Of a stretch of 64,000 bases of DNA, positions 36,963 to 63,077 are shown piece by piece. Every line of letters starts with the position of its first letter. The first letter of the stretch is position 1. Under the pieces are notes generated by a model. The model saw only the letters and a list, made by a program, of their open reading frames with translations, did not search any database and had not been told where the DNA came from. The position numbers and the translations under genes were made by a program. Origin of the DNA: Lingula anatina (Eukaryota > Animalia > Brachiopoda); the NCBI GenBank assembly GCA_051362555.1, contig CM120646.1, forward strand, positions 18,414,001 through 18,478,000, given 5' to 3'.

Positions 36963-37880
36963 TTAACCAAAAAGAGCACTAAGACCAAAACTGCTGCCCT
37001 TAGCACATTTAGGATTGTACAGCTTCACAACTTGGTTGTAGGCAAACGAATACACGTTGCAACATATTGTCCACGGCTGGGGGAAAACGTAAGTTGAACT
37101 CGTGACGGATCGGCATTCAGGCGCAGTTTTAAAGAAGGCTAAAATTCGTCGACCAGGGGGTGGAAATGTTTTCTCTGCGTTCTCGCACATGACTTGCCCC
37201 CGGGGTTTCTTCATGCCTCCGCTGGACACTAAATCACCGAGGGTCGACGCGTTCGATCCAAGCGCTAGCCTTGCCAAGCGTTCACAGTCCGTGGGGCACT
37301 GTTGTAATACACTGACGCACACATCCGTCGTGCTGGGACTGGCCTTGTTCATCTGACGCCGCTTTTTAGTTTGGAAGAACTGTGGATAGACATCCGTAAC
37401 TCTAACGATTTTGTTGCCGTCATCGAGAGAGAGGTCATTTTGACGTTGCCCATAAAGGAGGTCCGGGAGCTGAAGAAGCAGTGGCCCCGGTGTGGTGCCT
37501 CGGTCTTCAGCATGAAGACTACATTGGCACCTGTAAGTAAAAGTAAAATTAAGAGAACTGAGCGAAGAAAAAATGGCTTCTCTAGTAAAGTAAAGTAGAA
37601 ATTTATCATCTTCCTTGTACCAGTAACATGTTTTTTTCCACATAGTTATATATATTCTGTATATACATGTAATTTTACTTCGATTTTTTATTTGCATATT
37701 TTAGCAGAGCAACATTGCCTCCAGCAATAAATGTATTCACAGGATTTCATGTTTTTATGGTGCTGATATACCACTTCAGTACAGAAAATATATAAATGAT
37801 GCGCTTTAGTTGGCGTTGGCAGGGGCGGATCCAGGATTATTTGAAGGGCCCCAAAAACTTTGGTATTTTTATGGGGCGAA

Positions 37881-37921
<41 letters not shown>

Positions 37922-39847
37922 CAGGACCCCTTTCATCCCCCCTCAAAATCCGCCAATGCGTTAAGATACAAATTGAAAATTTGTGAATGTCCCCTTTATC
38001 CTGTAATAATGTTCAGTAGACTACATTCATAGTTCGTTGTCAATGAACTAAGCATATTCTGCTTTATATAAGAAAGACAAGCGTGCAAAGTTTATATAAT
38101 TAGCTCATATATCACCGGTAGTTGTTTATATTTTCATCACCGCTGTTAATGAAATATGCTTACCGTTCAGAAGTCTTTTCAGTCCCAGCGCCTTGAACAA
38201 ATTTAAACACAGAAATTGAGAAAACATGTATGAATTAATATCTGTACATTTAGATTTAATTTATAAACAAATAAAGAAGGAACTTCAGCTTGTATATATA
38301 TATAGTGAGTCGTAAGTTGTCTGTATAAAACATAAGAAATAAATTGCAAAATTTTTTTAAAAAATATTTACTCAGTATACGCACCTACACCTCCGTAGCA
38401 TTCCAGCGACTTCACCAGCAGATACACCTCCTCACCATCTTCGTCCAGGTCCCTTATTGGCACCTGCATCACCGGCAGGTAGCGCTTATCATCAAGATAT
38501 CCCTCGTCCACTACCCATGAAGAGGTAGTCATGTAGCTGTTACAGTTCCCCCTATAAGAGAAGATAAAGATATCAACTCGAATTTTTCCGTTTTCTTTAA
38601 AGATTAATTAAAATCATGCTTATTATGAACTCCGGTCAATTTCCCGGACGCCCTTGTTTATGTAGCAGTTGTGTTGCGACTAGCACAAAAAATGATTTGA
38701 ACACTCGAGTAGTACTCATTTCCAAAGGTAGGCTACTGTACATGTAAGTCCCTTCTACCAAAATGCCATTTTGATATAAAAATGATCTTGGAATATTAAA
38801 GAGTAGGGGCCTAAGTAGAAAAAAATCTCCCACTGTGGCAAATAATAGATAGTAAAAGAGCAATAAAAGTACGAGTTGTTTGACTGTGATGCAGATTCAA
38901 AACAAACTTATGCGGGCGTAGATGAGTATACATATACCAGGATGCAGTGTACATCCCCAAAAATGTACAGAAATTGTCATATTTGTTTCATATTTGATAT
39001 CGCAAGATACAACAATACAAAATCCCACGTGCACATGTCATATTTATGTACACATAAACTTGTCGATCAAGGTAATGTAATACAATTAACATTTTATTTT
39101 CTCGGAAACATAAACAAATTAAATATGTTATGTCTCACCATTGATAGTCACAGCTGTTCTGCATCGCGCATGCGCATTTAGAGCTATTGGTCGGGGCACC
39201 TCCCCAGTTGGTCATGCCCCATCCTTGTCGGGAAACCCACCAAGGACTGCTGTGAAAATTGAATGAGAGGTGAGACTGGAATCGAACGAACTGTCGACAT
39301 TTGCCTGATATACGGGTTAGACTTTCAAGTTGCTCTTCCGTTAGTCTGTACTTAAATGACGCGTATCGTGTATAATTTCCTGGACCTTTATAATGCTGTT
39401 GGTTTGTACCATCTTCGGGTGGTAGTAAAGTGACGCCACGGCCAGGTAAGTCATCTCTAGTTGTACAGATGACCTGGAAGGAGTCCACACCCCCTGCACC
39501 GTCAGGGTCGATGGTGTATACACCTTCCCTGAATACGGTCCCGGCATAATGGCTTAAAACATCCTCGCAGGATCTGGGCACTATAAAGAATAATGGCAAG
39601 ACACTTTGTACCAGAAAACAGAAGTGAATGGAAATTAAAGTACCGGCTTTTGGCGGCGTGCCTCAGAGATTAATTCACAATTATTGGATGAAAACATAAC
39701 ATCTACTTCATTGCTCGATTCTATTTTTTTAATTTGTGTTGCATGAATTTTGTAAAAAGTGCAAGCCTTCTAATTACCTCCTTTACAGCCCACATCTTGA
39801 ATTGAGAGAAGACAGAAAATCGTGAATGCAATCTGCAAACAAGTCAT
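36963..39847 (-). CDS. Array unit A: secreted Caspr-type fibrinogen-like domain + Cys-rich C-terminal domain protein, ~422 aa
   Basis: Exons 39847-39778 (signal MTCLQIAFTIFCLLSIQDVGCKG), 39580-39139 (VPRSCED..YTIDPDGAGG..WWVSRQG..NWGGAP..KCAC), 38551-38391 (CNS..DEGYLDDKRYLPV..LECYG), 38191-38164 (28-nt linker) and 37530-36963 (CQCSLHAE..CPTDCERLA..GQVMCEN..ICC..KC). Phases are consistent. Confidence 0.85.
37820..37958. mobile_element. MITE-like element with GGCGGAT...ATCCGCC inverted ends and an internal poly-G
   Basis: CAGGGGCGGATCCAG at 37820 and AATCCGCCAATG at ~37947-37958; G-run at 37882-37920. Confidence 0.6.
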
Positions 39848-41003
39848 ATCGCGATCTCCAGTCTTTATCGCTTGGCTAATAGGAATCAAGTGCGCTATTT
39901 GTGAACTAGTCTTAAAATACAGGTGCAATTCATACGCCTACGCACTAAGAAGGGCACGCGCGTCTTATGACCTGTTTGCTGGGGTTATCGGGGGGGGGGG
40001 GTAGGAAACTAGACGTAATAAATAAATAACCCATTCAATTATAATGATACTGTTATTCATTGAGATAAATATCCATTGACCAGTTTATATAGTATATTTA
40101 ATTAACTTACTTATCAGCTTAGTCATTGGTTTAAAAAGGTAGGTTCTTAGTGAAATAAAAAAAAATAGTCCATATTTGTCTGTTATTGGATTCCAAAAAA
40201 GTGCAGCTTTTAATGATAAAAAAATACAGAATTGACAGATGCCCATTTTGCTTTGGAATCTACATATAGAAGAAAGCGACACGGCCAGATAATGTGATCG
40301 ACTCTACTCCAGCGCCATCAAATACTGGTACTGTGACCGTAAGACTAGAAGACCGCAGTACAAGATCTTAATTTGTAGAATTGGCGTCCTTAATGCATTG
40401 CAGAAGATGATATTTAACATGGATAAAAGTGTATAAATTGATTGACTACAAAGTGCGAACAGCGCCACGTGTTTTCCGACCTCGTGACCTTGCTATGGAG
40501 GTGAGGCGATCACGAACTTAGAATATCACCAAAGGATTTCAGCACACTATAAAATAAGTATGCTATCACGAATTTGCCTGCTTAGTCGAATTCCCTCAAA
40601 AATAAGCATTTAATTTTTTGAGATCATAATTCAAGACGGCCCTGCACTTAGATTTGATATTTTACACCTTTTTTGATGGAATAATTTAGTCCTAAATGGT
40701 TGGTCAGTCATCGTGTTGTCTTTTCGTACAATCCCTGTGCAGTTAAGGAGGAAATATCGACATCAGGATTTTTGTTTGAGGGTTCTTACTCTTAAAAAAA
40801 ATCTAAATTGGAACACATGAGAACCGGTGGCACCGCAGGATGAGTAAACATAGAAAATACGATTATTGAAAAAACACAAGTCATTGTCTTTGATAAATAA
40901 CACAAATAGCGCTATAAATTTTGCAAGAACTTTACTATTTCAACTGTGAACATTACAGCGATTTCACAAATACCTTACACAAGGCATTAGTTTCCCGTTT
41001 TTC

Positions 41004-44000
41004 TCAACCAAAGATGGTGCTAATGTCCATGTTGGGGCTACATTTCTCATTGAACACATTGTACGCCTGGTTGGTGAAAGGTAAGGTGAACTTTTTGCAA
41101 CAAATGGTGGTATTATCTGGGAAAATATGCGTGGAACTGCCTGAGAAACCATAGGCAGGTGCCGTCTTGTAGAAGGCCACAATCCGGCTTCCAGGGGGAG
41201 GAATGGTCACCCCGGCGTTCTCACACATGACTTGGCCCAAGGGTTTCAGCACACCACCATTGCTTATTTTGGTGGTCAGGGGCATGGACGAAAGTTTTAA
41301 CTTGGCCAGTCGTTCACAGTCCACTGGACATCTCTGTAGCACGTTGAAGCACTCGGGTGAGGTGCCAGGGGTCACACTGATTGAAGGCAATATCTGGCGG
41401 CGTTTCTTGGTAGTAAAGAACTGTGGATACAAGTCCGTGACCTTCTTTTTCTGGTTCCCTTCATCTACCCATACGTCGTAGTAGCCTCGTCCGTAGATGA
41501 GGTCTGGAAGTTGATAGAGCAACGGTCCTGCTTTGGTAGATCCTTTCACTTCAGCATGGAGACTGCAGAGGCATCTTAAAAGAAATGAAAAATAATGCAA
41601 TGTTAATCACCCTCAATTTCCCCTAGTGCATGTTATAAATGCCAAGAAAAAGCCGTTTAGCCGTATTCAGCTAGTTACATGCCAGTGCGTAGTAGAATAT
41701 GCATTGTTCTGTACCTACTCCCTTGCTGTAAATGGTGATCTCTGCAAACGACCATAATTTAGAATTTTTCATGAAAGGGACTGTTATACAGTTACATCTA
41801 TAAAGCACAATACTGATGCGAGCAGCCGTTGTGAAAATTCCAGCTTTTCATTTCTCAGATCCAAAAGAGAAACGAAGAAATTTAAAGCTTAGGAGTTTGA
41901 AAAATGGAAAACCAAGTTAAAACCTCTATTACGCACGAAGTCCAAAAAAGGGACGGAATTAATAGTTTTATTTACGACGATTGGAAAATCGGACGTTCTC
42001 TCTCTGTGCAGCGCAAAAATTCGGAAATGACAACAGAATCGAATTAGATTTTTCTAATCAATTTCATAAATTCATTCAATCAAATACTTTTTGCTCTTCA
42101 ATCCTGTATTTTATAGCCACATGGACAATCTTTAGGATGGTTTATCCTCAGAAAAAATATATCGCCATGTGGTGCTGGTGTATATTCTAGCTGTGTTTCA
42201 ATCACCCCTCATTGATAACAATACAGATTGGGATATTCAATGTACATGTAATAGATCGTGAATTGTTTCTAAATTTCATCCCTGTAGTGCAAGGCTTGGC
42301 TATCTAATATCTGTTTAATTTCTATTAAACTTAAGCCTCTGTGAAATAATAATAATAATAATCTTCAGGTTGCAGATATTTAATTTGCAGATATTTAGTA
42401 ATTAGGTAAAAGCTTTTATACTTTTACTGTTAGTAAGCAGTCACGGCCAAAGAGATAGCAACGAAATTATAACCATAACAATAACAAGACTCGCTTTCAA
42501 AAAGTTTTGTGACTCATTGATGTTCACAATTAAAAAAATATATTTAAAATTGTTTGAACAAATTATACCTTATTGTACCGTGTTCGTTCAGTAATTGAAC
42601 GTGATCAGAAATCGCGGACACTTCCCTTTTGCAAACCATTTTTAAAATAAAAAAAAAACTAGATGAAAATTGTTCCTTTACTTACTTTTCAGTAGGCATT
42701 CCGCTCGCCAGAGCTACAATAAATGAACAGATTAATGAAAGAACTAACCCATCAATTAATTTATTAATCAAAAGATAAAATGAAAAAGATAATACAATTT
42801 TTCCAAAAATATACCCGTCAAAATATACAGCTACGAAAACAAAAAAAAAATGATTATGATATTAAAAGTGAATTAAAAATGTTTTTTCAAAGATATATTC
42901 AACAGGACACTAAGAATTAACTGTTTACTACATTAAAACAAACATTGGTTAAAGATATCAAAGTCACGTGAACAATTTTAATTTTGCTTTACAACAGAAT
43001 GCCTGGGGAATACCAGTATAAGGATCATGGTTTTCACAAATGCATTTTCTAATTAATGCCTGTTTCAACACAAGAAAGGGCTGGATGTTTTTTTTTTTTT
43101 TCGACATATAACACATGACACTTAATTAAATAAAGAAATAAATGAATAAAAAGAGTGTAACTGTTGTAGTGGAATACAAAACACCTCGAAGAGCATTGAA
43201 ATATTGAAAACGCAAGGTAAAACTACATATTCTTTTTTTCGTGTGTTGCTAATCAAAATGATTTAAACTCAAGTACGCGTGTGCATATAATCTACTTTGC
43301 CATACCTCCATAACATTCCATTGGTTTTACAATTAAATATACATCTTCATTCGTTTCATCTAGATCATAAATCTGCACCCTCTTCACCGGTAGGTAGCGC
43401 TTATCGTCAAGATATCCTTCGTCATTTCGCCACACGCGGTCATTCATTCGACAATTACAGGTACTGTATGTAAAACGTAAAGAAATATAAAATAGTATTA
43501 CCTGTGAGATAAGATGATTATATGTCTGTCAGTTATAAGACTTATTAACTGACAAACAAAAAAGAACTCAGTCGAATTACCATTTAAAATGACTAATATG
43601 AATTACGAGAAAAATCGCCGTAAAGACTACATTCATGGACTTTGTACATATAGCAGCAACTAGATGGGTTCTACAAAAATCATCAAAAATCATCAAAAAT
43701 TATAAATATATTTCCCGAAGTCGCCATGAAATCAATGTGCCGTTTACCTTGAACCGTCACAGGAATTTTGCATTGCGCATGCGCATTTAGAGCTATTTGT
43801 CGGGGCACCTCCCCAGTTGGTCATGTTCCATCCTTGTCGGGAAACCCACCAAGTTCTCGAGTAGAAAGTTTCAGCCCCAAAACATGAAAACCGAACGAAC
43901 TGTCGACACTTGCCAGATATACGAGTTAGACTTTCAAGTTGCTGAACCGTGGGTCTGTAATCAAATGAAACGTATCGTAAAAGTTCACCTGGACCTTGAT

Positions 44001-45633
44001 AATGCTGCGTCTGTGGTACAATACCACCTGCGTGAGGCACTAAAGTGACGCCGTGGCCAGGTAAGTCATCTCTGGTTGTACAGGTAACTTGAAAGGCGTC
44101 GACTCCCCCTGCACCGTCAGGGTCAATGGTATATACACCTTCCCCGAATACGGTACCGGCATAATGGCTCAAAACGTCTTCGCAGGATTTGGGAACTAGA
44201 AGAAAATTAACGTAGCGCTTAGCAGTAACCGGAAGACAATCAGTGAGAAAAAGTAGATATCTGATTTATGAAATGATAGATACTTCAAATTACAATTTGA
44301 ATCACCAATGAAAAAGTGCCAATGCGCAAGGTTTTTTTGGTCACATTTACTGAAACAATAGACCAAACCCTACAGTGTTATCACAATAGTTATCTTTGAA
44401 TGTTCTTCTTGATTAAAATATTTTAAGTTCTCTTTTGAACAGTTTGTATTAAATGCTTGAAGGCCTATCAATACTCACTCCCGTTAGCTGCCTCGTGCTG
44501 CACTGAAATTTAAAAGAAAAACATGTTTGTAATGTTCTAACTAGTTCGATGCTTTCTGAATGGCGATGACAACGCAAGGAGGTTTATGACTATTTGCTGC
44601 CTATTTATATTGGGTTGTATGTCCACGACTAAGAACGACGCCACACAGTAAGGATTGACTAAGGCAAAACAAAACAGCTGTGAAGTTAATTAAAAGAACA
44701 CGGAAAAAAATGACGATATCATTTTCTCCAAAAATATAGCCGCCAGAATGTAGGCATACAGTTACAAACAAATAAAATAAAAAAAAAAAATTAAAAAACA
44801 AAGAAAATAAAAAAAACACACACACAAAAAAAAAAAACATTTTCAAAGATATGTTCAATAGGACAGTAAAACTGATTATTTACTTCAGCAGTACGAAAAC
44901 GTTATTTAAGAACTAATCAAGTGGGCATTTTTACTCTACAACAGGTATTTAAGGTTCGCCTTAGTTGTACATGTATTCACAGGTGCGTTTGCTAATTCAT
45001 GACTTTTTCAACATATAAAAGGGATGGGTATTTTTCTCGACATGTAACACATGATACTTTAATAAATAAATAAATAAATGAAAAGAGTCGTGGAATACAA
45101 AACATCTCGAAGAGCAATGAAATATTGAAGTCACAAGCTTATACTCGGGCGGATTGAAGCCGTCTTCTAGGTCTTCCGGACGACGGTCAGGTTTTCAAGT
45201 TTACATGACGGGTATTTAATGTCTTCTGTCAAAAGACGGTCAAAATGGATCTCTGGATCCGCCCTTGAAGAAACATATCCTTTTTTGAGTGTTTCTTAAC
45301 AAAATGATTACTAAAGTTTGTGCGTGCATATAATCTACTTTGTCATACCTCCATAACATTCCATTGGCTTCACCATCAAATAAATCTCTTCATTACTACC
45401 ATCTAGATCAATAATCTGCACCTTTTTCACCGGTAGAAAGCGCTTATCATCAAGATATCCTTCGTCATTTCGCCACACGTAGTCATTGATTTGGCAATTA
45501 CAGTTACTGCATATAGAACAAACAAAATATCAAATAGTTTTACATGAAAATTATAAGTTGTGCTTTCACATTCACTGATGATTTGCTTCCTTAATACAAT
45601 CTCAATGTGAAACAACGTAATTAAGGTGAATTA

Positions 45634-45669
<36 letters not shown>

Positions 45670-46427
45670 GTAAGCAACTACATATAAGCATCTTTTATAA
45701 GTACCATATAAGTACCAAATCCTCAAAATTGTAAGTGCGTTTCTCAGATACATCCACAAACCAAATGGTCACTTACGTGTACTTATTTGATCTGTCACAA
45801 TTATTTTGCATTCCGCATGCGCACTTAGAGCTGTTAGTCGGAGCACCTCCCCAGTTGGTCATGTCCCATCCTTGCCGGGAAACCCACCAAGATGGCGAGT
45901 CGAAATTATGAGCTTCATAACATGAAAATCGAACGAACTGTCGACATTTGCCAGATATACCCGTTAGACTTTCAAGTTGCTCTTCTGTTACTTTGTAATC
46001 AAATGAAGTGTACCGGGTATAATTTCCTGGGCCTTCATAATGCCGCGGCTGTGGCACGGTACCACCCTCATGAGGTACTAAGGTGACACCGTGGCCAGGT
46101 AAGTCATCTCTAGTAGTACAGGTGACCTGGAAGGAGTCCACTCCCCCTGCACCGTCAGGGTCGATGGTGTATACACCTTCCTTGAATACAGTACCGGAAT
46201 AATGGCTCAAAACATCCTCACAGGATCTTGGCACTACAAAAAAATTAATAACAGTTACTGTAGGGATTGCAGGTTATTCAAGATGGTATTGCATTAATTA
46301 ATGAAGTTGTTTTATTCATTGTTTGTACCAAATGCCCGCAGGCGTCTCAGTACTCACCTCCGTTACCTGCCGCGTAGTGCATAGGAATAAGAAAGAAAAT
46401 CGTGAGCAATATGTTCAAACTAGCCAT
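41004..46427 (-). CDS. Array units C+B: probable fused gene, signal-FBG-FBG-linker-Cys-rich domain, ~629 aa
   Basis: Unit C exons 46427-46358 (MASLNILLTIFFLIPMHYAAGNG), 46233-45777 and 45506-45349 have no linker or C-domain of their own. Unit B exons 44195-43748, 43463-43306, 42713-42686 and 41574-41004 are intact but lack a functional signal exon. The phase-1 donor after 45349 fits the phase-1 acceptor at 44195; total 1890 nt, open throughout. The individual exons are well supported; the fusion is inferred. Confidence 0.65.
44479..44550 (-). pseudogene. Disabled signal-peptide exon of unit B
   Basis: Aligns with the signal exons of C and E (..ISVQHEAANG). The ATG is lost (TCGAACTA[ATGGC..] in E versus TCGAACTAGTTAG in B) and two in-frame stops (TAG, TAA) are present. 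Confidence 0.8.
45144..45267. mobile_element. Short MITE-like insertion (GGGCGGAT...ATCCGCCC)
   Basis: Inverted ends. The insertion is absent from the paralogous intron position in unit B (~43210-43230), which serves as an empty site. Confidence 0.65.
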
Positions 46428-47129
46428 AAATCCAATGAGTAGCTAAATGGCGTTGGCTATGCAATGGAAATTAACTCCATTAACTGAGTTGATTACTGCT
46501 GCCCTTGATAAAGGGGTGCATATATATGCTCACGACTGAGAACGATGCCATGTGTTTTTTTTTTTTTTTCACATCAGGTGGGCTGTCTTATCGAAAAAGA
46601 AGACTGTTAAGACTGACTTAGACAACAGCAAAACAGATATGCAAACCAAGACCATTTCCACAAATAAAATAGAAGCACAACCAACTTTTTGAAGCAACCT
46701 TTAATTATTAATTACACTCCAATAAATCTTACGAACAATGACGATTTTTGCTTGGTAGAAGGCAGGGGCATTCTAAAATTGTTGCGTTTAATTTATCAAT
46801 TAATTAATTTTTGAGAGTTGCATGGCTCTGCTGTGCTATTTCATTTATGTCCAAAGTCAGAGAATGTGGCATCTAGAAGTGCTAAGTATCCCAATACTTA
46901 ATTCAGCAGTTGACAGTCACAAACTTATGTGTTCCGCCCCGCTTAATTGATATTTCGAAAAGAACTTATTTTAGGCTCTTAAAAGAAAAAAGTTTATAAA
47001 ACCGTTATTTATTTTCTTTGAAAACAACACAGTCAGACAGCTTGACTGAAAACCATGTAGAAATTGAAATCAATCGCTTATTTTGCAGTTGTCTCCCATA
47101 TTATGAACTTCATTGTCTCGTATTGTTTT

Positions 47130-47173
<44 letters not shown>

Positions 47174-48167: not shown

Positions 48168-51149
48168 TCAACCAAAGATGGTGCTGATGTCCACATTGGG
48201 GCTACATTTTTCATTGAACACGTTGAACGGCTGTCTGCTGAAAGGCAAGATGAACTCTTTGCAGCAAATGCTCGTATCATCTGGGTGGAAATACGTGGAA
48301 CTGCCAGAGGAATCACAGCCAGGCGCAGTCTTGTAGAAGGCCACAATCCGGCTTCCAGGGGGAGGAATGGTCACCCCGGCGTTCTCACACATCACTTGAC
48401 CCAAGGCCTTTTGGACGCCAGCATTCGTTATATTTGTGGACAAGGACATGGAGGCAAATTTCAATTTGGCAAGTCGTTCACAGTCCACTGGACAGTTTTG
48501 TAACACGCGGACACAGTCCGGTGATTTGTTGTGAGCCACACTGGAAGGCAATATTTGGCGGCGTATCCTGGTTTTAAAGAACTGTGGATACACGTCGGTG
48601 ACCTTCTTTTTCTGGTTGCCGTCATCTATCCATACGTCGTTGTGGCCTTGTCCATAGATGAGATCTGGGAGTTGATAGAGTAATGGACCCGCTTTTGTAG
48701 ACCCTTTCACTTCGGCGTGGAGACTGCAGAAGCACCTTAAAGAAAATATGGAAGCGCCATATTTATTACTATATCAATTCTTAACCCCATATCAAAGGGA
48801 TGTCTCACTGTACATGTACACTGTGTGTAGCTAACGCCAATGAGAAAGCTGCGAAGCCAGCATATGCCGCAAGCTAGATTATGATGAAAAAAATGACGAA
48901 TTTAAAAGTCTTGTTTATGATGGATGGGACTGTCGATGTCTTTCCCTCTGTACATCTTTGAAATTTATAATTGTAAGAGAAAATAAAAACAAACGATATC
49001 ATTAATTGACATTTGTAGTATTTTTCTTGAAATTGATGCTCTGATTTGAAATGTATAACCATATGAACAATATTTAGAGCGCTGATCAAGACGTTTCATC
49101 AGCGGAGGATATTAATAAATAAAATTACTAATTTCTTAGTGTTTTGTATTAAATTTAGAAAGTGATTGAAGGTTTTGCCGTAGTTTAGTGTATGTTATCA
49201 GGCTTGAAGCGTTTAATAAAAACATGTAGGCTGCAAATAGTTCCATTGTATCAAATGATTCTCAATCGCTAACTATCCAATGCAGGAGCGATAAATACTC
49301 CTACATTCTGCGTAAAAAAGTAAATGCAATTTATGTAAGTTAAACGTTCTTACTTTTCGGTAGGCTGTCCGCTCGTCACAACTAAAAATAAATGAATGAC
49401 TTTATTAAAAAAAATAAAATAAAAGGGAGAGAAATGATACGAAAAACAACTCTTTACAAATACCTTCGTCAGTACCTTCAAAATGGCTAATTGTCAAGGT
49501 TAAAGTACATATCCTATTTTAAAGTGTAGCTGACATGTTTAACCAACGATAGCGCACGGAATTTTGTACTTTGTGATACCTCCGTAACATTCCATCGGCT
49601 TCACCGTTAAGTATACTTCTTCATGACTGTTATCTACATCACGAACCGGTACCTGCTTCACCGGTAGATAGCGCTTATCGTCAAGATATCCCGCGTCCAC
49701 TCTCCACATTCCATCATCTCGGTGGCAGTTACACTGGTCACTGAAAGAAAGAAAACAATTCAGCTCGCCACACCGCGTCATTGATTTTGCAGTCACGTGT
49801 ACCGAATGTTGAACAAACTATAATATACAACTGACTTTGGCTGAACCCGCGCATTCTACGTGAAATTCAAGGCTGAAAATAGTTCAAACGGTCTTCTCAG
49901 TAGACCGCCTGAAATCTCCGAGCGGTTAACGCAACGTGGTCAACTATATCTTAGAAAAAAAATTATTATTCGTCTGTAACCAGATGAATCGTAAGTACGG
50001 TACTAGATTGAAAAAAAAAAATACACTAATGTGAAACGCTCCTTAATGACTAACATACGAAATATTATTGTTCCTTAGCAATGTAATCTTTTCACATTTT
50101 TGGTTAAAACCCTAGATATCTTGTCCATCAGGCATAATAACAACTGAATGAGAAAAACCAAATGAAAAACTATTTGAGATGGTGGACTACTACAAGTTTA
50201 GTAATTAGAAAACAGGACGAGGCCGTCAGTTGCGAAAATGCCAAATTCACCGCTTCTTTTGACAATTGACATTAATTTCAAACAAATAAATGGCCTGTGA
50301 AACAAGTCAAACCTGTCCCTCATTCATGCTTTGTTTCACAATTGTCTTATCAATTGTTTTATCATAATAAATAACCAATGTGTGCGTCATATTTATTAAC
50401 AAATCAATGTGTCACTTTAGGAGCATCTTACTTTGACATGTCACAGCGATTCTGTATTGCGCACCCGCATTTAGAGCTGTTAGTCGGGGCACCTCCCCAG
50501 TTGGCCATGTTCCATCCTTGTCGGGAAACCCACCAAGGGTTCGTGTGGAAATTCCAAGCATCATGACATGAAAGTTGAACGAATTGGCGACATTTACCAG
50601 ATATACGAGTTAGACTGTCAAGCTGATCTTTTGTGAGTCCGTAATCAAATGAAGCGTATTGTTGGAAAAGTCCTGGACCTTGGTAACGCTTCGGCTGTGA
50701 CACGATACCACCTGCGTGAGGCACTAAAGTGACGCCGTGGCCAGGTAAGTCGTCTCTAGTTGTACAGGTGACCTGAAACGCGTCCACTCCCCCTGCACCG
50801 TCAGGGTCGATGGTGTGCACCCCTTCCTTAAATACAGTACCTCTGTACTGACGCACAACGTCCTCGCAGGATCTGGGAACTGGAAGAAGAATGCAAGACA
50901 CTGAACCACCAAGCAGAAATTAATCGACAAAAAATCGCCGGTGAACTCTGTGACATTATTCAAACTTAAAATAACAAATTGTTTGTATTTGTAGATATTG
51001 TGAAAAAGTTGAATTTCTTTATAGATGCAATTATTTTGTGTTGCGTAAAATTTGTGCGGAATAGAATAGGCCTACATACCTCCCGTACCCACTACTGCGT
51101 TAACTGAAAGAAAACAGAAAAACAAGACCGAAATCTTCAAGCAAGCCAT
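48168..51149 (-). CDS. Array unit D: secreted FBG-like + Cys-rich domain protein, ~424 aa
   Basis: Exons 51149-51080 (MACLKISVLFFCFLSVNAVVGTG), 50879-50432, 49740-49580, 49381-49354 and 48735-48168; GT-AG junctions, open frame of 1275 nt. Confidence 0.87.
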
Positions 51150-51452
51150 ATTGACAGCGCTGGACGCTGGCTTAATCGTTACGGTAACGAGGGTTATAAA
51201 ATGCGCTATTTATGAACTAGTATTCAAATAAAGGTGCAATGCGTACACCCACAAATTGAGAACGACACATGCGTTTTATGACCCGACTGTGCAAGGTTAT
51301 CGGCAGGAAAAAAGCACCTGCAGGAAACAGACGCAGAAAATAAAAATAATCATTTAATCATTTATAAAACCGTTGTTCATTGAAATGTAATTTCAGTGAT
51401 CAGTCTTTGCAAGATACCTTATTAACCTATTAATCAACTTAATCAGTATTCT

Positions 51453-51491
<39 letters not shown>

Positions 51492-51632
51492 AAATCCCAG
51501 AGAGGTACGGCCATCGTTTCATATTTAAAAAAAAAAAAAAGATATTTGATGGGATATTTTTTACTTTCTTTCTCTAATAAAAATATCCATCGGTAGGCTC
51601 ATTTGGATAAGTAAGCAATTGTGCGTGCAGCC

Positions 51633-51915
51633 ACATGCAATGGACAATAGAAGTGTCATCCCTACTGGACCAATACTTTGGGGGAGATAAATGACTGTGG
51701 AATTAAATACTCATGGTATCATTTTATTAACATCAAATTTTACCAAAAAAAAAAAAAAAAAAAATACAATTTCATAAAAAAATAATTAAAAAATTAAAAA
51801 AAAAAACAATTCCATGGTACAGCGGTTTTACATTATAAGTAGACCAGGCATTATAACTACTCAAGATCTGCCTACTTTAATTACTCGGGTGACACTTCTA
51901 TTGTCCATTGCGTGT
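51633..51915. mobile_element. MITE-like element with ~28-bp terminal inverted repeats
   Basis: TGCAATGGACAATAGAAGTGTCATCC (51636-51661) is inverted against GGGTGACACTTCTATTGTCCATTGCG (51887-51912); the interior is AT-rich and non-coding. Confidence 0.7.
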
Positions 51916-52934
51916 ATACAATGGGAATGACATTGATGCTTATACAATGCGTGCGCATTACTGCGTCATTTATGGAAATGGAGGGACGGATAAATAGATC
52001 AATTTACGGCCAAAAATTTGAAGAATTTGGTTTATGAATTGGTATGTTGACTTTATTTTAAGAAACTTATGGTAGTGGTTGATATTTGTAAATGGGAATC
52101 CACGCTCCCTTTGTTTGTCTTTAAACCATGGAAAAGATTTATTTAACCAAGTGGACGATTAATTAAATCAATGTAATGGTAAATGGAAAGGAAGGATCAA
52201 TTATTCAATCGTGAAAACTATTTATTTATTTATTAAATCGATGGTACGATTTATAAATCGTGCCGACAGATTAAAATTATTTTTATAGGTGGACTTTTTG
52301 GGCCACCATATCATCAAGTGCTGCTTACTATAAGAGGAATGCGATGCACGTTTTGAACCTGTACATTCGATTTCCACAAAACAAATGTGTACAGGAAATA
52401 GAATTCAAGCCAAAAAGTACTGATATACACTGGTAAGTGTGCGTAAAATCCATGATGTACTACAAAGTGAGAAAGGCACCTCGTGTTTTTTGACCTCGTA
52501 ACCTAGCTATCAAGGTGAGACGTTCACGCGTGATTTAAGGGCTTGGGTTTTATGAACGTTTTGAAAAAGATCTAGACACTTAAAGAAACACTCTTGAATA
52601 AATTCTTTCTACGTTAAAAATCATAAATTCAAGTCATAAATAACTGATATTAGTATCCTATGTACGTTACATGTAATGGTATTTTTGTCAACACTGGAGA
52701 ATGATACGTTGTTTTGTCATTCTCTGAAGAAACATTTTGTTGGCAGAATAATGCGTGCAAGACCAAATTTTCCCCCGTTGTTTAGTAGATTGTGCGATTT
52801 ATGCAAAAAGATAAAGGTCAGCGCCTTTAAAAAGTAACACAAACACGGATATAAATTTTGCAAGAACTTTACTATTACAACTGTGAACATTACAGTAATT
52901 TCACAAATACCTTACACAAGGCATTTATTTCCAG

Positions 52935-55900
52935 TTATCCTGAAGCCAAGATCGTGTTGAGGTCAACATTGTAGACACATTTCTCATTGAAATAGTTGTA
53001 CGGCTGGTTGGTGAAAGGCAAGGTGAACACGTTGCAGCAAATCGTTGTATTACCTGCGAAGAGGTGCGTGGAACTGCCAGAGAAACCACAGGCAGGCGCA
53101 GTCTTGTAGAAGACCACAATACGGCTTCCAGGGGGAGGTATTGTCACCCCGGCATTCTCACACATCATTTGACCCAAGGGTTTTTGGACGGTCATCTGGG
53201 TGGACAGGCGCATGGGCGAAAGTCTCAACTTGGCCAGTCGTTCACAGTCCACTGGACAGCTCTGTAACGCGTGAAAGCACTCTGGTGAGATGCCAGTGGC
53301 CACACTGATGGAAGGCAATAACTGGCGGCGCTTCCTGGTATTAAAGAACTGTGGATATACTTCGATGACCTTCTTTTTCTGGTTGCCGTCTTCTATCCAT
53401 ACATCGTTATGGCCTTGTCCATAGATGAGATCTGGGAGTTCATAGAGTAATGGACCCGCTTTGGTAGAGCCTTTCACTTCGGCGTGGAGACTGCAGAGGC
53501 ATCTTAAAAGAGAAAACGCAATGTTATTCACTCGATTTTTACCTCCACCTTGAATGAAAAGAATCATTTAATATTTTTCCGGCGGTTGGATGAGCAGATT
53601 TCCTCCCCAGCATGCAACTCCAAACTTAATTCAGAAATGTACAACGGAATATAAACAACAACTTTCAGCACGCAGTCACTTAAAAAAGTGAAACCATGGC
53701 AACAGAGCGTTCAGGTTATTTTGTTTGGGGACATGTTTCCATACCAAACTTATGTGATAAATTTCATATCGTACGGAACCTTTTAAGAACAGGTAAAGCA
53801 AATGCAGTATAAACATGTATATATGTGTGTGTTATACGCAATACGCAGTCAGGTTTGCATCTTTGAAATTCATATACATGTACTAGTGCACATGCAAGTA
53901 AAATGCACTTACTTTTCAGTAGGTGGTCCGCTCACCATATCTACACAGACACATAGAAAAAATACACAATGAATGAAGTAAAGAATAACAAATTATTTGA
54001 AAAAGAGCGGCATGAAATTTGTGGAAATATCAATCAAAACCTTTAAACTACATCATACTATGGTACATGTAATATGGTAAATATATGTAGAACCGATTTC
54101 TAACACAATATTACATTTACTACATTGTGGTTCCAACTTTTAGTTCAAGTCGAAAACCTAGAAAAGATTGCTCGAAGGTAAGAAGTCTAAAAGACCATTA
54201 TTGAGGTCTTTCAATACAATAAAATACCTGCCTCTCAACTTGAAAGACAAAACTTCCCTGAGAACAGCTAAGTTCGCAGCGCAATGAATGATGGATTCTC
54301 AAATTTAACGCATTACAAATTGTTGCCAAAAAGTTTAACCTAGTTTGTGTGTGCATTGTATCTTTTGTGATACCTCCGTAACATTCCATCGGCTTCACCA
54401 TTAAAAATGTCTCTTCACCATCATCATCAAGATCATCCATCGGTACTTGCTTCACCGGTAGATAGCGCTTATCGTCAAGATATCCTTCGTCATTTCGCAG
54501 TAGGTAGTCATTCAATTTGGAATTACAGTCCCTGTATATAGAACAAACAAAATAATTAACCACTACTAACTGTTAAATAAAACATGTTTATCATATGACA
54601 TATATTGACGATACGTTTAGATATTTGTCAACTATTTATTATTATTATTATTATTAACTAGACACCAAAGATAGGAAGTTAACAGCAAATTAACAGCAAA
54701 AAAGTTGCGACAATTTTAATAACAAAGAGTAAAAAATGTCAATAACTTTTTTAATTTATTAAAATTAATTCTATCAACCTGGTTTCCTAAAGAAACCTAC
54801 AAAGTCACTCAATAAATTTGAAGTGTAGCATTTGAGCGAGCGTCGTCAAAATACATGATGAAAAGAATAAGAAAAAAGATAAGATAATCAATAACGTTCA
54901 TAAAAATAATTCGATCATGCTTACTTTCGAAATAAATTGGTATTATGGACATACAAAGCCAGTCGGCAAATTTGAAGTAAAACAGAAATACGGTTTGGCA
55001 CCTATTGGGCTAACATCGCCAAAATACATGAAAAAAAAATCCCGTAAAAATCAATAACGTTTAAAAAATACACTGTTACAACAGCAACGGTCGATCTTGG
55101 GAAGCACAGAAAATTCACGCGCCCTAGCTTAGAAGATAATCCGCCTTCTCTACACTCCTATCCCCAAAAAGAACATAATGATAAAACAGCAAATAAAAAC
55201 AGTAAAAATAAAGCAAAACCAAACTATTTTCCTTGCTATACCTATACGTTATGATTAAAAAAATGTCCAGAGAACAAATCTTGGATACGTCAGTTCACTG
55301 CACTGTATATATACAAAAAACTGTGTGAAACTTGCCAACATTATTCCCAACTTAAAGTTATTAGAACATCAAGAACTGTTAAATAAATGCACTTTTCAGA
55401 TACATCAACAAATCGGCAAGCCACATGGGTCTGAGCGTTATCTTACATGTTCTCTCCATCACATCGATCCTGCATCGCGCATGCACATTTAGAGCTGTTT
55501 GTAGGGGCACCTCCCCAATTGGTCATGTTCCATCCTTGCCGGGAAACCCACCAAGGACTTTTTAAGAAATTCTCTGAATGAATTGTTGAAAGTCGAACAT
55601 ATTGGCGGCATTTGCCAGAAATACGGGTTAGACTGTCAAGCTGCTCTTCGGTGGGTTTGTAATAAAAAAAAGCGTATCGTGAACGTTCACCTGGACCTTG
55701 ATAATGCTGTGGCAGTGGCTCAACACCAAATTGGTGAGGAACTAAGGTGACACCGTGCCCAGGTATATCATCTCTGGTTGTACAGGTGACCTGGAAGGGG
55801 TCCACTCCTCCTGCGCCGTCAGGGTCGATGGTGTATACACCTTCTTTGAACACGGTGCCGGCATAATGGCCCAAAACATCCTCGCAGGACCTGGGAACTA

Positions 55901-56248
55901 AGAGTTTAGACAAATTTTAGCAGTAACCGGACAGCACTAAGAAAATTCTTTCCCGTTTTAACAAATGATGTAGCTTTTTTGAATCACAAATCAGACAGCT
56001 ATTGTAAATATTTACATTGGCCACATGTACTGATGCAATTGACAAACTGATTCATTGTGAAAAAAATTATATATTATTATATTTTGAAATATTTTAAAAA
56101 TGCGGATTCGCTACTCAGTTTTAAAACTTTAAAGTTGCATTGCACAAGTTTTTACTGAAAGCTTGTACACCTACGTACCTTCATTAGCCGCCACGTATTG
56201 CACTGAAACAAGAAAGAAAACCCCGTGCAAAATGTTTAGATTTGCCAT
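52935..56248 (-). CDS. Array unit E: secreted FBG-like + Cys-rich domain protein, ~424 aa
   Basis: Exons 56248-56179 (MANLNILHGVFFLVSVQYVAANE), 55897-55447, 54531-54374, 53940-53913 and 53502-52935; GT-AG junctions, open frame of 1275 nt. Confidence 0.87.
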
Positions 56249-57002
56249 TAGTTCGACGCTGTCTGAATGGCGGCGGCTATGCAACGGAAATGAACCGAGC
56301 TGGTTCTTTGCTGTCCTTCATGTGGTGCTGCATATGCCCACAAACTGAGAACGAAACCATGTGTTTTATCAACTCGATGCCCTGTGTTATCGAAAGAAGA
56401 AACAATCTGCACGGAACATCTACGCAACGCAAGGGCACACCAGTGACATAGAGTTACAACCAACTTGAAGGAAACGATCTTTTTAAAATTGTCGATATAC
56501 CCAAAATAAATGTATCGAAAAAAATCGACCTGTGCTGTAGTAAACAAGGCAAAGGAGATCTAAACACGCTACATTTTATTAATTGATTAATTAAGTCATT
56601 TCTGTCCAAAGTCAAACAAGGTGGCACCAACAAGTGTCAAGTACTCTTATACTTTATTTACTATTTGACATCCAAAGGCTTCTAGAAAAGGTCCGCTTAG
56701 GTAATAATTCGAAAACAGTATATTTTAAGGTCTTGAAAGAAAAAAGGTCATTTTAATTCTTATTTATTTTCTTTTTCGAAAGGAGGTAAAGATTAACAGA
56801 TAAAGGCATATGTAGCTTTGTTGAAAATCGCATAGAAATTAAAAACGGTTGCTTGGCAGTGGTGTGCACTTCATTGCCTCAGATATGTGTTTTTCAATAC
56901 TTTAATTAACGAATTCGGTTTTCATAAGGTGTACATATCATGCGAAGCATGCCATCCCTCCCAATTCACAAGTTAAAAAACGTCAAAACCCCACCAATAA
57001 AA

Positions 57003-57177
57003 GGGGGCCGTAGCGATAGTCCGAAGGTTCAATAGTCCGAAGGTTCATTGGTCCGAAAGTTCACTATAGAACCTTCGGACCAATGAACCCTTGATTAAAA
57101 AATCGATGAAAATGTTACCACTTTTCGGACCAATGAACCTTCGGACCAATGAACCTTCGGACTATCGAGACGCCCCC
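57003..57177. mobile_element. MITE with long repeat-built TIRs and a 7-9 bp target-site duplication
   Basis: The left arm of ATAGTCCGAAGGTTCA-type repeats is inverted against the right arm of TGAACCTTCGGACCAA/CTAT repeats. CCAATAAAA flanks both sides (56994-57002 and 57176-57184). A 9-bp TSD would be Mutator-like (inference). Confidence 0.8.
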
Positions 57178-58547
57178 AATAAAAGTAGGGCCTACCTGAT
57201 GTTGATATTTCCTTTCTAAAATGTACAGGAGGACATGATGGCGAAATTATCGGGTCCAAGCACAGGAAACGTTTTTTTAAGAAGAGAAAAAAACCGGATT
57301 GTTGGGGAAAACCCGGATTGAATACTCGCGACCTTTGCTGACCACTTAAAGTTACATATGAAGTCAAATCTTTCCAGCTAAACCCCGCTTAATACCAAAT
57401 AACGTAACTGAAAGGAATACTTATAAGGGTATCGTCTCATTCTTCCCGAAAAATGGTATTTGAACAGACATGAACTGCTTTCTTGTTGTGTTAAATACAT
57501 GTTTAACGCTCGGTCATTTTCGCCAGCCTTCGTTTTAAAACATGTCTTCATGCCATTGTTAGCGCAACGATGCGTCATACATGAAGTTCTACATCATTTG
57601 GCGGACTTCACGAACTGGCAGCGCGAATAAATTCCAGTAGGCCAAATTTACGACCACTAATAAATACAATAGGCCAAGTTTACGAGCAGTCGTTGCAGTT
57701 TTACAGCTATTTTTTGCTGACTGAGTGACTCATTTGGCTTGTTCTTCGGTATGTCGACTTCCTTCGAGTCGTAAAATAACTAGTTGAAGTGGTTGATATG
57801 CTTTACAGGGAATGTTCACTAGCGCCAAATGTACCTTAAAACCCTTAAAACCTTTACTCCAGGTAGAACAAAAGTTCCGTTATAAGGGACGCAGTTATAG
57901 TTTTCAATGGTCTCATTGAGTATCCATGTTTAAATGACCTACTTTTAAAACCGTGATGTGAATTGATTTTAGTGCATTATTTACGCAGCAGACGGGGGGC
58001 CGGAGGTGAAAAGTTAGGGGTGCTAAAACTGATAGAGAAGAAATTAAATGTCAGCAAGCCTTACAACTTTAAATCATATGCTTAATCAAGCTGAAAAAAT
58101 CTCAATCAACTTCAAATGTAGGAAACGTCTCGCAGACCCTGTTAGCCCTGTACTTGATAGCAGAGTGAAGAGGTTCAAGGTTAAAAAACATGAAATTAGG
58201 TCATTTTGTCAAATGGTCTTGTTAATCTTGTGTTTTGATGGCCTACTTTTATAATCGAGGAGTAATTTACAGAAGACTAGTCCATTATGCACTCAGCAGA
58301 AGGCAAAAGGTTTACATGTTTTTTAAAGGAGCCCAGGGATACACCCCGCGACCGTCCGACCGGTGTGCATAGAAGGAAGTACCAAGCCTTCGAACGTTCT
58401 ACAAAGTGGAAAATTGTAAGTTAACCTGAAATGGATGACCATTCTTGGAAATACACTGTACTGTCTGTCCTACGTTTGAGCCACTAGCTGCATTCAATAG
58501 GCCTTATATCTGTGACAGTAAACCGAACGAGTTATCAACGATCAAAC

Positions 58548-60598
58548 ATGTCTTCGTTGAGAGTAGCCGTAGTTGTATACTTTCACGCTGTTCTTATTGT
58601 CGGTTTGTATCTGAAACGCTATGAGAAAGTAAATGTGGTCTCTGCTGGCGAAACCGACTACAGACAACGTCTTCCCGCATTTCTCCATTCTTTTCCCTCA
58701 TTACTCCGACCAACCATTTGCGTCGTATTGTCCCTGTGGACTGTCCTCAAGATTGTGTCCCCACCCAGGGACACGCTCATGGGCTGCATAGCGCAGTTTT
58801 TTCCAAAGGAACTTCGGGTGTTTGTTATACCATACATGGCTTGGTTTCTTAGCACTATAGAACCCCAACTGAATTTGGAACAGTATTCGCGCTATATTAA
58901 AAAACTGGATCAACAAATACCAGAGTTCTCTTGGGTACAGACAGTAGGGTATTATTTTGTGAAAAGTTCCTATTTGCCGATCTTCTACTACGGCGTCGTT
59001 ATCACAGGAACAATCATGTCAAATTGCAAAATAATGCAAAACCAGAGAACTTGGTTAAGAACCGCAGGGCTGCTGACACTGACTTTTGCAGATATTTTTC
59101 TCGTATATTGGTTTTTCTTCGAAAGTGCACACCCAGAAATTATAGGAACATTATCGATTTTCGTGTTCATTTCTGCCACCCCAGTCGTCGTCTATCAAAT
59201 GCAGGTCACACAGCAAATGCGCGTTTTCCTACTCGGTGGCCTTTTCACATTGTCAAGCATGATGTATCAAGAAATTTGGAGGTATCGTCTGCTCGAGCCG
59301 AACCTAAACCTGGTATCATCCGGGCACTTAGTCATTTTGTTGTACATATGTGAGCACATGAACAAGGACGGATTAGACCTATATTTGCAAACTTACAAGC
59401 GCCTTCCCAAATATCTCCCGGCTCCAAACAGAATTGCAAGCATCATTGTTCTGCTAACAATTTCAAAACTCAGACTTGCATACAATATCGTGGAACTACT
59501 TCTCGAACCCCTCATTTACTGGACCCACTTGGCCCCCAAAACGTTCGTGACAACAGTTGGGTTTTTCCAAACTTCCATCAATTTTCTTTCTTTCCATTAT
59601 AAATATATCATCCCACATGTAGCTGTTTTAGTAGATTTGCTATTCATTTATCAAGTTTTTGAGATATCCAGCATCTTTTCACCATTTTATCGGCTTTTTC
59701 GGGACAACTACGACGATTGGTATGTGTTTGAGTCCTGGAAGACGCAGACAGAATGGAAAATTATGAGAGCCTGGCTCATGACAATTTGCTACACGATCGT
59801 TTCATTCGGCCTGCATCTCGGTGTGAATTTTATACTTTTAGACTTCGTGACACTGGAGGTATGCTTAATAGCAATTCGCCATGGACTAACGAAACCCGAT
59901 TTCGAAGAAGATGAAGAAGAAGAGGATGCTCTCACTTCAACAGCTCTTGCAACCGAAACGGAAGACCCGACCACAGGTGATACAGCCGACGAAGAAGACG
60001 CGATTCCTGTAGATGATGACGAAGACAAGACCACTATAGAAGAAATAGACCAGCTTTCAGAAAAACAGTTCTCTGACAAAGCGGTTCAAACGAGAAGTGA
60101 GTTAACATATTAATGACATACGGGCAGTGTTTGTCCCACGAATGCGGAAACTTATTTTGTTTAAGTAATAATTTGCTGAGTGTGTTTGTTTGGTAACACA
60201 AGTTAGATTCCTTCAGAAAACAGCAAGATCAGATTACATTTGTTTAGTTATACCGGTAGTTTACTAGAGAATTGTTGCCTAGTATAATAGTAATGTTGCT
60301 GCTGAATAAGAAAATGTCCAAATGAGTGTCTCCGATCCTACGGTTCGTGTGTACAAATTTGAGAGGTAAAGGCGCTTTAAGCTGTAGCCACTGTCCTCAT
60401 GTTCAAAATTTCATTTCAGCCAGGAGACGAAGACGAACATCGCAGCACAGTCGAAAAAAGGGAAACGAACTGTCACCAAGAGTTAAAATTAACAACGTGT
60501 TTGGTTACTTCTTCCGCGGCGGTAACATCCAAGTTGGTAATCAGAACCGCATGGAGGTGTATCACACTGAAGAAGATGAGGAGAATGCACGTGCGTGA
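58548..60598 (+). CDS. Multi-pass membrane protein with an acidic cytoplasmic-type tail and a spliced C-terminal RHIM-like motif, ~575 aa (521 aa if unspliced)
   Basis: The first ATG at 58548 (AAACATGT) opens a long exon with many hydrophobic segments followed by a D/E-rich tail. A consensus donor A|GTGAGT (60096/60097) and an acceptor TTTCATTTCAG| (60419/60420) join in frame to TRRRRRTSQHSRKKGNELSPRVKINNVFGYFFRGGNIQVGNQNRMEVYHTEEDEENARA*. Family not recognised. Confidence 0.75.
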
Positions 60599-62341
60599 CG
60601 TCACAGGGCATTGAACGTGACGTCATCTAAGTCAATTTACTGATGCTGCTGAGTTTAGTTAACGAATGATTTTAGATTTTTGTTACATATTGGGGTGGGG
60701 GGAGGGGTGCAGCAATATTCATAACTAGAAGCAAATTTCGTCGGTAGTGATGTAGTGATTCATGAATTCATGTATTTTACTATTTAGGATTATTATTGTC
60801 CATACTTGTCAGTGATCAATTTTTCAGCAAGTATTACCGTTTTTTTCCAAATAAGAAATATTTCCCGGTATGATATACATAAAACACAAATTTATTTTAA
60901 AATTAAAAAAAAAAAAAACTTTGCACGAAAACTTGCCACATATAAAATGCAATATTGATATATAGGACGTTCAAAACGAATTATCGACCTATATAAATAT
61001 ATTTGAATAAAATAAAACATAATTTGGACATAATCGCATTAGTTTACTCCATGCCTTGGATTTTTCTAAGAAAGAACCACTCTGATCAATTATAGATAAA
61101 TACATAAAGTATCATGTTTGCCAGGAAAAATGTAAATATAATCCTGCGAATGGATTTTATAAATAGAAACAAATCAGTTGAAATAAGAAGCTTCTGTTAT
61201 TTCAGTCCTTATCTGCAGATGTAGCGTTTCATTATTGATTTATTTTCTCTTGGTATAACCGGTTGTATGGAGAGAGAGGTTGATTTTCTCGCTTCAATAC
61301 ATGTCCCTTACCGCTCCTTTACGCTCCTTGCCCCCCCCTCCCGAATGCGAGAAATTAAAGGGCAACTCCATGGGTTTACACACTAAAATGGATCTTCCCT
61401 GGGAAATAAGCAAATTTCTCACGCATCATTCATTTTCCCATTCTGTACTTGGATTCGACATTTTATTAAATTAATAAAGGTTGAGTTAGTTGTAAATGAC
61501 TGGCCAGTCATTATAACCAGCTACCATCTTTCTAGGCTTCGATGGAAATATCCACATCAGAAAAAATATTTAATGGGTTATTGTTTTTAAGGTGTATGCA
61601 AGGTTTTATAAGAAGCTGTGGATGGCGAAAATAAGTATTTTGGGGTTTTTTAAACCCATGGAGTGTACCTTTACCTGATGAATTATTTTAAGTCAAATTG
61701 TCAAGATGTTGTATTTTGAATGCATTTATATTTAACGACATATGCCCGATTCAATTATTCTTTATAAATGCTTTATCTACATCAGCACAAAACAATCTGG
61801 TACAGTTTCAATAGCTACCAGAGAAGCATATATAAATGTACACCCCCCCTTTCGTAGGGAATAGCTTCTGAACAATTGTGCAGTTTGAAAAGTGCACTAG
61901 CTAAACAGGATGTTATGTGCCTTAGTGTATCTTGTCTCGTATATTGGGTAAGGTGGGGTGTAGATTCACCATTATTTATTATTTTCTTGATGGGTCCTAC
62001 CAATCGTTTTAATATATTAAAATCGGTGTTTGCAAATGTAACCAGGAATAGTCGTTATTTTACTAATGGCACATTATATACACGGAGCTCACGATATCAT
62101 GACAACTTCTAAGTAAAATGTTTTGAATGCACATATATTATTCTACCCATATATCATTCGCCCTTTGCAAAAGGGGATAAATTATTGTAATATTATGAAT
62201 AAGGTTCCAATTATACAAAACAAAAACAAAATAATTTTTCTTAAGATCATTTACTCAAGTATTGATCACTTAACAGTGGTGCAGGTGATGGCCGGCACAT
62301 TTGCCAAACTCAAACAGACAGAAACCACGGTAACATGGTAA

Positions 62342-62962
62342 TTAGCCACTCAAAACCGTGTTGAGGTCCAGCGTACGGGAGCATTTCTCATTGAACACGT
62401 TGTACACCTGATTGGTGTATGGTAGCCGGAACACAGCGCAGCAAATGGTCGTGTCATCAGAGAAGACGTGCGTGGAACTGTGACCGGAACCGCATGTTGG
62501 TACGGTCTTATAAAAGGCCACGATACGACGCCCAGGGGGAGGCAAGGTCACCTTAGCGTTCTCGCACATGACTTGACCCAGCGGTTTCTGAACTCCTCCC
62601 ACCGATATCTTTGTAGCCAGGGACTTGGATGCAAGATTAAACTTTGCCAGGCGTTCGCAATCCACAGGGCATCTTTGTAACACGTGGGCGCACTCGGAGG
62701 AAGTACCCGGATGGACATTGGTAGATGAGGATGCGTGGCGCCGCTTTTTAGTGCTGAAGAAATTAGCATACACATCGGTGACTCTTCTAGTCCTGATGCC
62801 GTCGTCAATCCATACGTCATTCTTTCCTTGTCCGTAGATAAGGTCGGGAAGCTGGAGAAGCAATGGTCCGGCCGTGGTCTTACTTTTCTCTTCTGCATGA
62901 AGACTGCATTGGCACCTATGGGAAACGTGAAATGGGAAGTACCGGAAAGCATAATTTACTTG

Positions 62963-62998
<36 letters not shown>

Positions 62999-63077
62999 GC
63001 GTGTTGTTTTATATTAAATGTATTAATGAATAAATAAATTTTAATTTACCTTTCTTTTTGCTTTCCGTTAAACGTGG
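62342..63077 (-). CDS. Array unit F, 5'-partial: 28-nt linker exon + Cys-rich C-terminal domain exon
   Basis: Exons 63077-63050 (ATFNGKQKER) and 62915-62342 (CQCSLHAEEKSKTTAGPLLLQLPDLIYGQG...CPVDCERLA...GQVMCEN...ICC...NEKC). The upstream exons presumably lie beyond the window end. Confidence 0.8.
62966..62993. repeat. (CT)n microsatellite
   Basis: Pure CT run in a unit F intron. Confidence 0.95.

Follow-up and report, generated by a model that had tools for sequence, protein, structure and literature searches.

Gene cluster and exon plan

We analysed a 64,000-nt stretch (hereafter the window) of the Lingula anatina assembly GCA_051362555.1 (contig CM120646.1, positions 18,414,001 to 18,478,000), in which a tandem family of genes for secreted proteins, each built of an N-terminal head and a cysteine-rich C-terminal tail, occupies the minus strand between 36963 and 63077. 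An earlier note on this DNA had described at least six units sharing one exon plan. Six units (A, B', B, C, D and E) were present, and the plan itself was confirmed: a 70-nt signal exon, a first head exon of 442-457 nt and a second of 158-161 nt, a linker of 28 nt and a last exon of 568-574 nt, with AG/GT at all exon boundaries and matching phases. However, all five exons were intact only in A, C and D (three of the six units), which have canonical splice sites and open frames of 422-424 amino acids (aa). Of unit E, the window contains the linker and the last exon; it ends before the rest, and the 5' exons presumably sit beyond. A tblastn search of the window recovered five head-exon pairs, five last exons and no further copies, giving five copies of each large exon rather than six, and the cluster probably comprises five genes.

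Of 30 exon pairs, 27 had an estimable dS, and their pairwise dN/dS (nonsynonymous to synonymous substitution rates) was 0.12-0.51, showing that the family is under purifying selection. These values, together with the RefSeq models XP_013415270 and XP_013415247, which match units A and C at 96-100% in the three large exons, indicate that the cluster is not due to chance. Unit D was nearest to LOC106177168 (87-92%); B and B' matched XP_013415259 at only 78-86%, which suggests that the structure of the cluster probably differs between haplotypes.

By inspection, the hydrophobic N-terminal exon of A, B', C and D is a signal peptide. A hydropathy scan of A, C and D revealed no other hydrophobic segment, and the last exon closes with a stop codon and leaves no cytoplasmic tail, so the absence of a transmembrane segment was upheld for the scanned units. 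All head-plus-tail proteins returned by the searches came from Lingula anatina, and the RefSeq models of the window family are 423-425 aa long; as far as these searches reach, the architecture is lineage-specific, as had been proposed.

RNA reads were then compared with the cluster. No family exon was covered in four runs carrying the same species label, a stretch for which those runs offered no control; in four other runs, a neighbouring WW-domain gene, spliced at seven CT..AC joints, served as the control. Run X8 gave 6-7 reads on unit A exons. Run X6 gave 13 reads with loose ends that matched unit E exactly, nine reads from a head exon outside the window and two reads that connect matches to a head exon 1 and a head exon 2. 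These results show that A and E are transcribed in some runs.

The head domain

The motif series YTIDPDGxGG...WGG...CAC...CNC...DxGYL reported earlier is present in the heads and matches that of the Caspr "fibrinogen-like" domain. Two RefSeq members are named contactin-associated protein-like 5, the very label that automatic pipelines had been expected to assign. A Caspr identity of the head is thus suggested by RefSeq names and motifs rather than by alignment to a Caspr sequence. In Caspr and neurexin IV (CNTNAP) proteins, discoidin, LamG and EGF domains surround the fibrinogen-like domain. Pfam found none of these three among 63 minus-strand open reading frames (ORFs) of 55 or more aa (36000-64000), nor in the RefSeq models P0001-P0004, and PDB sequence searches with the family gave no Caspr match. 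With models of 423-425 aa, the exons do not belong to a longer Caspr-like gene, and the description of stand-alone, secreted proteins holds. Unlike Caspr, the Lingula proteins are secreted and have no discoidin, LamG, EGF, transmembrane or cytoplasmic part.

The best fold match of the head was the COLFI domain of fibrillar procollagen C-propeptides (PF01410; PDB 5k31, 4aej), over about 196 residues at 14-18% identity; this match comes from a predicted model, and the sequence score lies under the Pfam cut-off. The head is described here as predicted to fold like COLFI. In all five window heads, aspartates stand at 0, +2 and +8, the spacing of the collagen calcium ligands 59/61/67, suggesting that the head likely binds calcium through a D-x-D-x5-D loop. 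Fibrillar collagens share this fold and loop spacing, but their COLFI is C-terminal and accompanied by a Gly-X-Y helix, a stalk and a loop cysteine, whereas the Lingula head is N-terminal and lacks these; no Gly-X-Y triple-helical domain occurs in the spliced models. In structure comparison, the head resembled COLFI far more than it did ficolin or fibrinogen, and Pfam gave no Fibrinogen_C match in window ORFs or RefSeq models. In contrast to FREPs and ficolins, the head is N-terminal, unmatched by Fibrinogen_C and without a collagen or Ig stalk.

The same head and tail occur in one secreted protein in the Lingula "SCUBE2-like" entries XP_013393559 and XP_013396241 (P0015, P0009), which carry EGF repeats between the two, whereas the window family has none and may have lost, or never gained, this spacer. 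A variability profile showed that the paralogues vary in head loops.

The tail domain

The cysteine-rich module, noted earlier as a different Cys-rich module joined to the head, is neither particular to this family nor of unknown type: it proved to be a mobile C-terminal domain that is also found in other Lingula proteins and in the annelid Owenia fusiformis. A HMMER scan of 1.84 billion representatives gave 11 matches, one of them a repetitive false match; with cluster members and other searches included, the domain was found in 18 database proteins and was the last domain in all of them (one is truncated and one is the domain alone). Its N-terminal partners are the window-type head, EGF repeats, SRCR and D8C in Lingula, and IgGFc-binding and CUB in Owenia. 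Ten cysteines are present in four of the five window tails (B has nine) and in 16/18 database proteins, and a CxC is invariant in 21/21 aligned rows. Lingula-type tails contain an extra 30-40 residues between cysteines 2 and 3, bearing a K/R-x-K/R-R site that is found in 5/5 window tails, 10/13 Lingula-type database proteins and 0/5 Owenia proteins. In the model of the unit C last exon (predicted local distance difference test score, pLDDT, 77.5), this site falls just before a low-confidence loop; the model had no match among solved or viral structures. The isoelectric point (pI) of the tail is 8.1-9.2 in Lingula and 4.5-4.9 in Owenia. The Owenia proteins P0011-P0013, P0016 and P0017 form an expanded family of their own, in which an IgGFc-binding domain, a Pro/Thr linker and the tail follow one another; all five tails have an eleventh, odd cysteine that could form inter-chain bonds.

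Two Atlas look-ups led to a small unnamed arthropod cluster (PF28850), both under the bar for naming a family, and this cluster pointed to follicle cell protein 3C; a Pfam scan of the tail gave no Clf/FCP3 family match. The ten-cysteine Clf/FCP3 domain is defined in PMC6391395. Compared by eye with the sequences shown there, the tail has the same cysteine order (CxC, C-x5-7-C-x3-C, GQxxC, C, CC, C) and, ahead of cysteine 7, a hydrophobic strand of similar kind; a remipede Clf/FCP3 sequence shares a six-residue motif after CxC with the window (PMC6391395). These similarities suggest that the tail is very probably homologous to Clf/FCP3, a relationship read from cysteine order and motifs rather than from a profile score. 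Secretion, cysteine order, short motifs and multi-copy families are common to both (PMC6391395; PMC5493777). However, Clf/FCP3 proteins are mostly small, stand-alone arthropod proteins, whereas the tail is a C-terminal module of multi-domain brachiopod and annelid proteins; its last loop is longer, and in Lingula about 35 inserted residues carry the basic site.

According to PMC6391395, no similar sequence was found in transcriptome shotgun assembly (TSA) data of annelids, molluscs, echinoderms and hemichordates, and the few non-arthropod matches were two from Trichinella, one goat TSA entry and a lancelet sequence at E 6; the supplement contains no Lingula or Owenia entries.

Units B' and B

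Unit B' consists of a signal exon and both head exons, and blastn (word size 7) found no relic of a linker or last exon in the 800 bp downstream. In unit B, four exons are present and the signal exon is decayed: the ATG is lost, the length is reduced by about 4 nt, and there is an in-frame TAA. If B' exon 3 is spliced to B head exon 1, the reading frame is maintained and the product has 629 aa. A T-rich AG acceptor lies 24 nt before the old donor of the dead B signal exon, and an in-frame micro-exon there would give 637 aa. Probably, B' and B form one gene with two heads. The two halves are old duplicates (dS 0.39-0.50, dN/dS 0.24-0.33), and open frames, splice sites and a dN/dS of about 0.3 at dS 0.4-0.5 are kept in both, with disabling changes limited to the signal relic, which speaks against decay. 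No RNA read crossing from B' to B was seen in the runs; this weighs against the fusion, and one gene is therefore what we infer rather than observe. That B' and B are instead two decaying half-genes is rather unlikely, although the missing junction read, the tail cysteine lost in B, a possible read-through of B' into a 232-aa head-only protein and the single head behind a B'-like signal peptide in RefSeq P0001 favour it. P0001 as a whole joins that signal peptide and head to a B-like tail, at an identity of only 78-86%.

Proposed function

There is about an even chance that these proteins are secreted into a chitin-containing outer layer, with a COLFI-like calcium head and a Clf/FCP3-type chitin-binding tail. 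The tail apparently being a Clf/FCP3 domain, the proteins are likely parts of a chitin-based layer, for which shell or periostracum, setae, larval or egg coat and gut lining are candidates. In published work, Sv-Clf1 bound chitosan and disturbed calcite growth (PMC6391395), planthopper Fcp3C was required for chorion formation (PMC5493777), and Lingula produces much chitin (PMC4595640). The tail would anchor the protein to chitin, the D-x-D-x5-D loop would bind calcium, and heads would join to one another or to a partner, so that the protein could cross-link or decorate the scaffold and might modulate mineral deposition. A proprotein convertase would nick the inserted loop of the Lingula tail, maturing it without release: two of the ten cysteines precede the site, and the pieces would thus stay disulfide-joined. 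Paralogues would differ in their variable head loops and be used in different tissues or stages.

Several points weigh against this proposal. Both Atlas matches are one source below the naming threshold, and the Clf/FCP3 comparison was made by eye and with a pattern whose loops were widened with the Lingula proteins in view. Spacing differs between the tail and Clf/FCP3, both from C2 to C3 (64-75 against about 20-27) and from CC to the last C (16-18 against 7). The acidic charge of the crustacean Clf branch is not matched by the basic Lingula tails, and the one tested Clf is acidic, so electrostatic chitosan binding may not carry over. The full-length model is mediocre (pLDDT 59; predicted template modelling score, pTM, 0.45), the third aspartate is absent in RefSeq P0001 and P0002, and collagen-like trimers are doubtful, since the head loop is cysteine-free and no coiled-coil stalk precedes COLFI. 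The supplement of the Lingula genome paper, including the shell proteome, holds no contactin- or fibrinogen-annotated entries, as judged from annotation with gene IDs unmatched.

Among the roles suggested earlier, adhesion or matrix is the best supported, and pattern recognition is weakened: a head that is COLFI-like rather than a FReD lectin makes a weaker case by FREP analogy. We consider it unlikely that the proteins serve secreted immune or mucus recognition, with variable heads as binders of microbes or glycans and a tail that makes the proteins oligomerise or ties them into mucus. Tandem expansion with variable head loops and the expression of different paralogues in different samples agree with such a role, as does the tail at the end of SRCR, D8C and IgGFc-binding-domain proteins, domain types frequent in mucosal defence; but the lack of a Fibrinogen_C match, the fold much nearer COLFI and the measured dN/dS values, all below 0.52, argue against it, even if whole-exon values can hide a few selected sites.

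Still less probable are egg-coat or gamete-recognition components like insect Fcp3C, with the tail as a convertase-activated coat-assembly module placed as ZP domains are in D8C/EGF proteins. The D8C-EGF-tail order of P0007 resembles uromodulin-type proteins, the basic site is kept in every window tail, FCP3 domains are reported as basic, like the Lingula tails (PMC6391395), and Fcp3C is needed for the chorion (PMC5493777). However, Owenia tails are acidic and without the site, and no positive selection appears at exon level. Finally, precursors whose convertase cut frees an eight-cysteine C-terminal peptide, as a signal or antimicrobial, are very improbable: K/R-x-K/R-R keeps its position in window and most Lingula-type tails and falls at a low-confidence loop, but the domain that contains it is uninterrupted in Owenia and Clf, and the invariant CxC before it is probably bonded to cysteines after it.

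We tentatively offer a wider scheme that is more doubtful than likely: Clf/FCP3 would be an ancient protostome chitin-anchoring module, shuffled in brachiopods and annelids onto the C-terminus of many recognition domains and gaining a convertase-switch loop in Lingula, and the cluster would couple it to a collagen-C-propeptide-type calcium head. The products would be linkers of a new class, connecting chitin with phosphate mineral or collagen in the shell of lingulids.

The proteins are already in RefSeq and relatives are known for both domains, so the gain is interpretive. As far as literature searches reach, the joining of this head to this tail is new, as is the view of the head as COLFI. 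Also new are the occurrence, in brachiopods and annelids, of a Clf/FCP3-like domain that is mobile, C-terminal and equipped with a convertase loop, and the B'+B fusion gene with its probable two heads. If correct, a cuticle and eggshell domain held to be an arthropod invention would date to the protostome ancestor as a reusable chitin-matrix anchor, and dozens of "uncharacterised", "Caspr-like", "SCUBE-like" and "MEGF6-like" spiralian proteins would gain a name and a simple assay. It would also favour describing the Caspr-type "fibrinogen-like" domain as a calcium domain of COLFI fold, and stand-alone "contactin-associated protein-like" entries in invertebrate proteomes would need a different interpretation.

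Feature coordinates and neighbouring sequence

Table 1. Exons of the cluster, in window positions
Feature	Position	Strand	Remarks
Unit A signal-peptide exon	39778..39847	-	70 nt, ATG; 96% to RefSeq XP_013415270
Unit A head exon 1	39139..39580	-	COLFI/Caspr-type domain, D-P-D-x5-D loop
Unit A head exon 2	38391..38551	-	Reads in run X8; RefSeq allele implies donor 6 nt further on
Unit A linker exon	38164..38191	-	28 nt
Unit A last exon	36963..37530	-	Clf/FCP3-like 10-Cys domain, basic site; reads in run X8
Unit B' signal exon	46358..46427	-	Where the B'+B fusion gene probably begins
Unit B' head exon 1	45777..46233	-	
Unit B' head exon 2	45349..45506	-	No linker or last exon after
Unit B decayed signal exon	44479..44544	-	
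Unit B candidate in-frame 24-nt micro-exon	44479-44502	-	Polypyrimidine/AG acceptor and GT donor; putative
Unit B head exon 1	43748..44195	-	
Unit B head exon 2	43306..43463	-	
Unit B linker exon	42686..42713	-	
Unit B last exon	41004..41574	-	Clf/FCP3-like domain, nine cysteines
Unit C signal exon	51080..51149	-	
Unit C head exon 1	50432..50879	-	98% to XP_013415247
Unit C head exon 2	49580..49740	-	
Unit C linker exon	49354..49381	-	
Unit C last exon	48168..48735	-	Clf/FCP3-like domain; copy used for fold prediction
Unit D signal exon	56179..56248	-	
Unit D head exon 1	55447..55897	-	
Unit D head exon 2	54374..54531	-	
Unit D linker exon	53913..53940	-	
Unit D last exon	52935..53502	-	Clf/FCP3-like domain
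Unit E linker exon	63050..63077	-	
Unit E last exon	62342..62915	-	Clf/FCP3-like domain; transcribed in run X6

Between D and E, the plus strand carries a membrane-protein gene (58551-60113), which is one ORF of 520 aa. It has six hydrophobic segments and an acidic tail, and no Pfam family scored above the cut-off. From GT donors shortly upstream of the stop codon, in-frame splicing to an exon at 60420-60598 (+) would be possible, giving 573-574 aa; this exon contains an IQVG core in a RHIM-like context, and Pfam RHIM was not matched.

On the minus strand, the multi-exon WW-domain gene (about 14000-36200), with long coiled coils, is spliced in runs X6, X8 and X9 and is presumably CEP164. Its intron 32982-35367, which reads skip, contains a 337-codon proline-rich ORF (33353-34366, -); Pfam gave no match, and four runs left 33512-34839 uncovered. 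It may be an alternative exon in rare use or the relic of a mobile element. Further features are an exon of a sodium:neurotransmitter symporter (PF00209; 9-395, +) and WAP and TIL protease-inhibitor exons (8648-9780, -). Short interspersed repeats at 45147-45206 and 51641-51886, where partly matching RNA reads accumulate in large numbers, are likely SINE/MITE pieces common in transcripts, and short repeated units in both orientations occupy 57010-57180.
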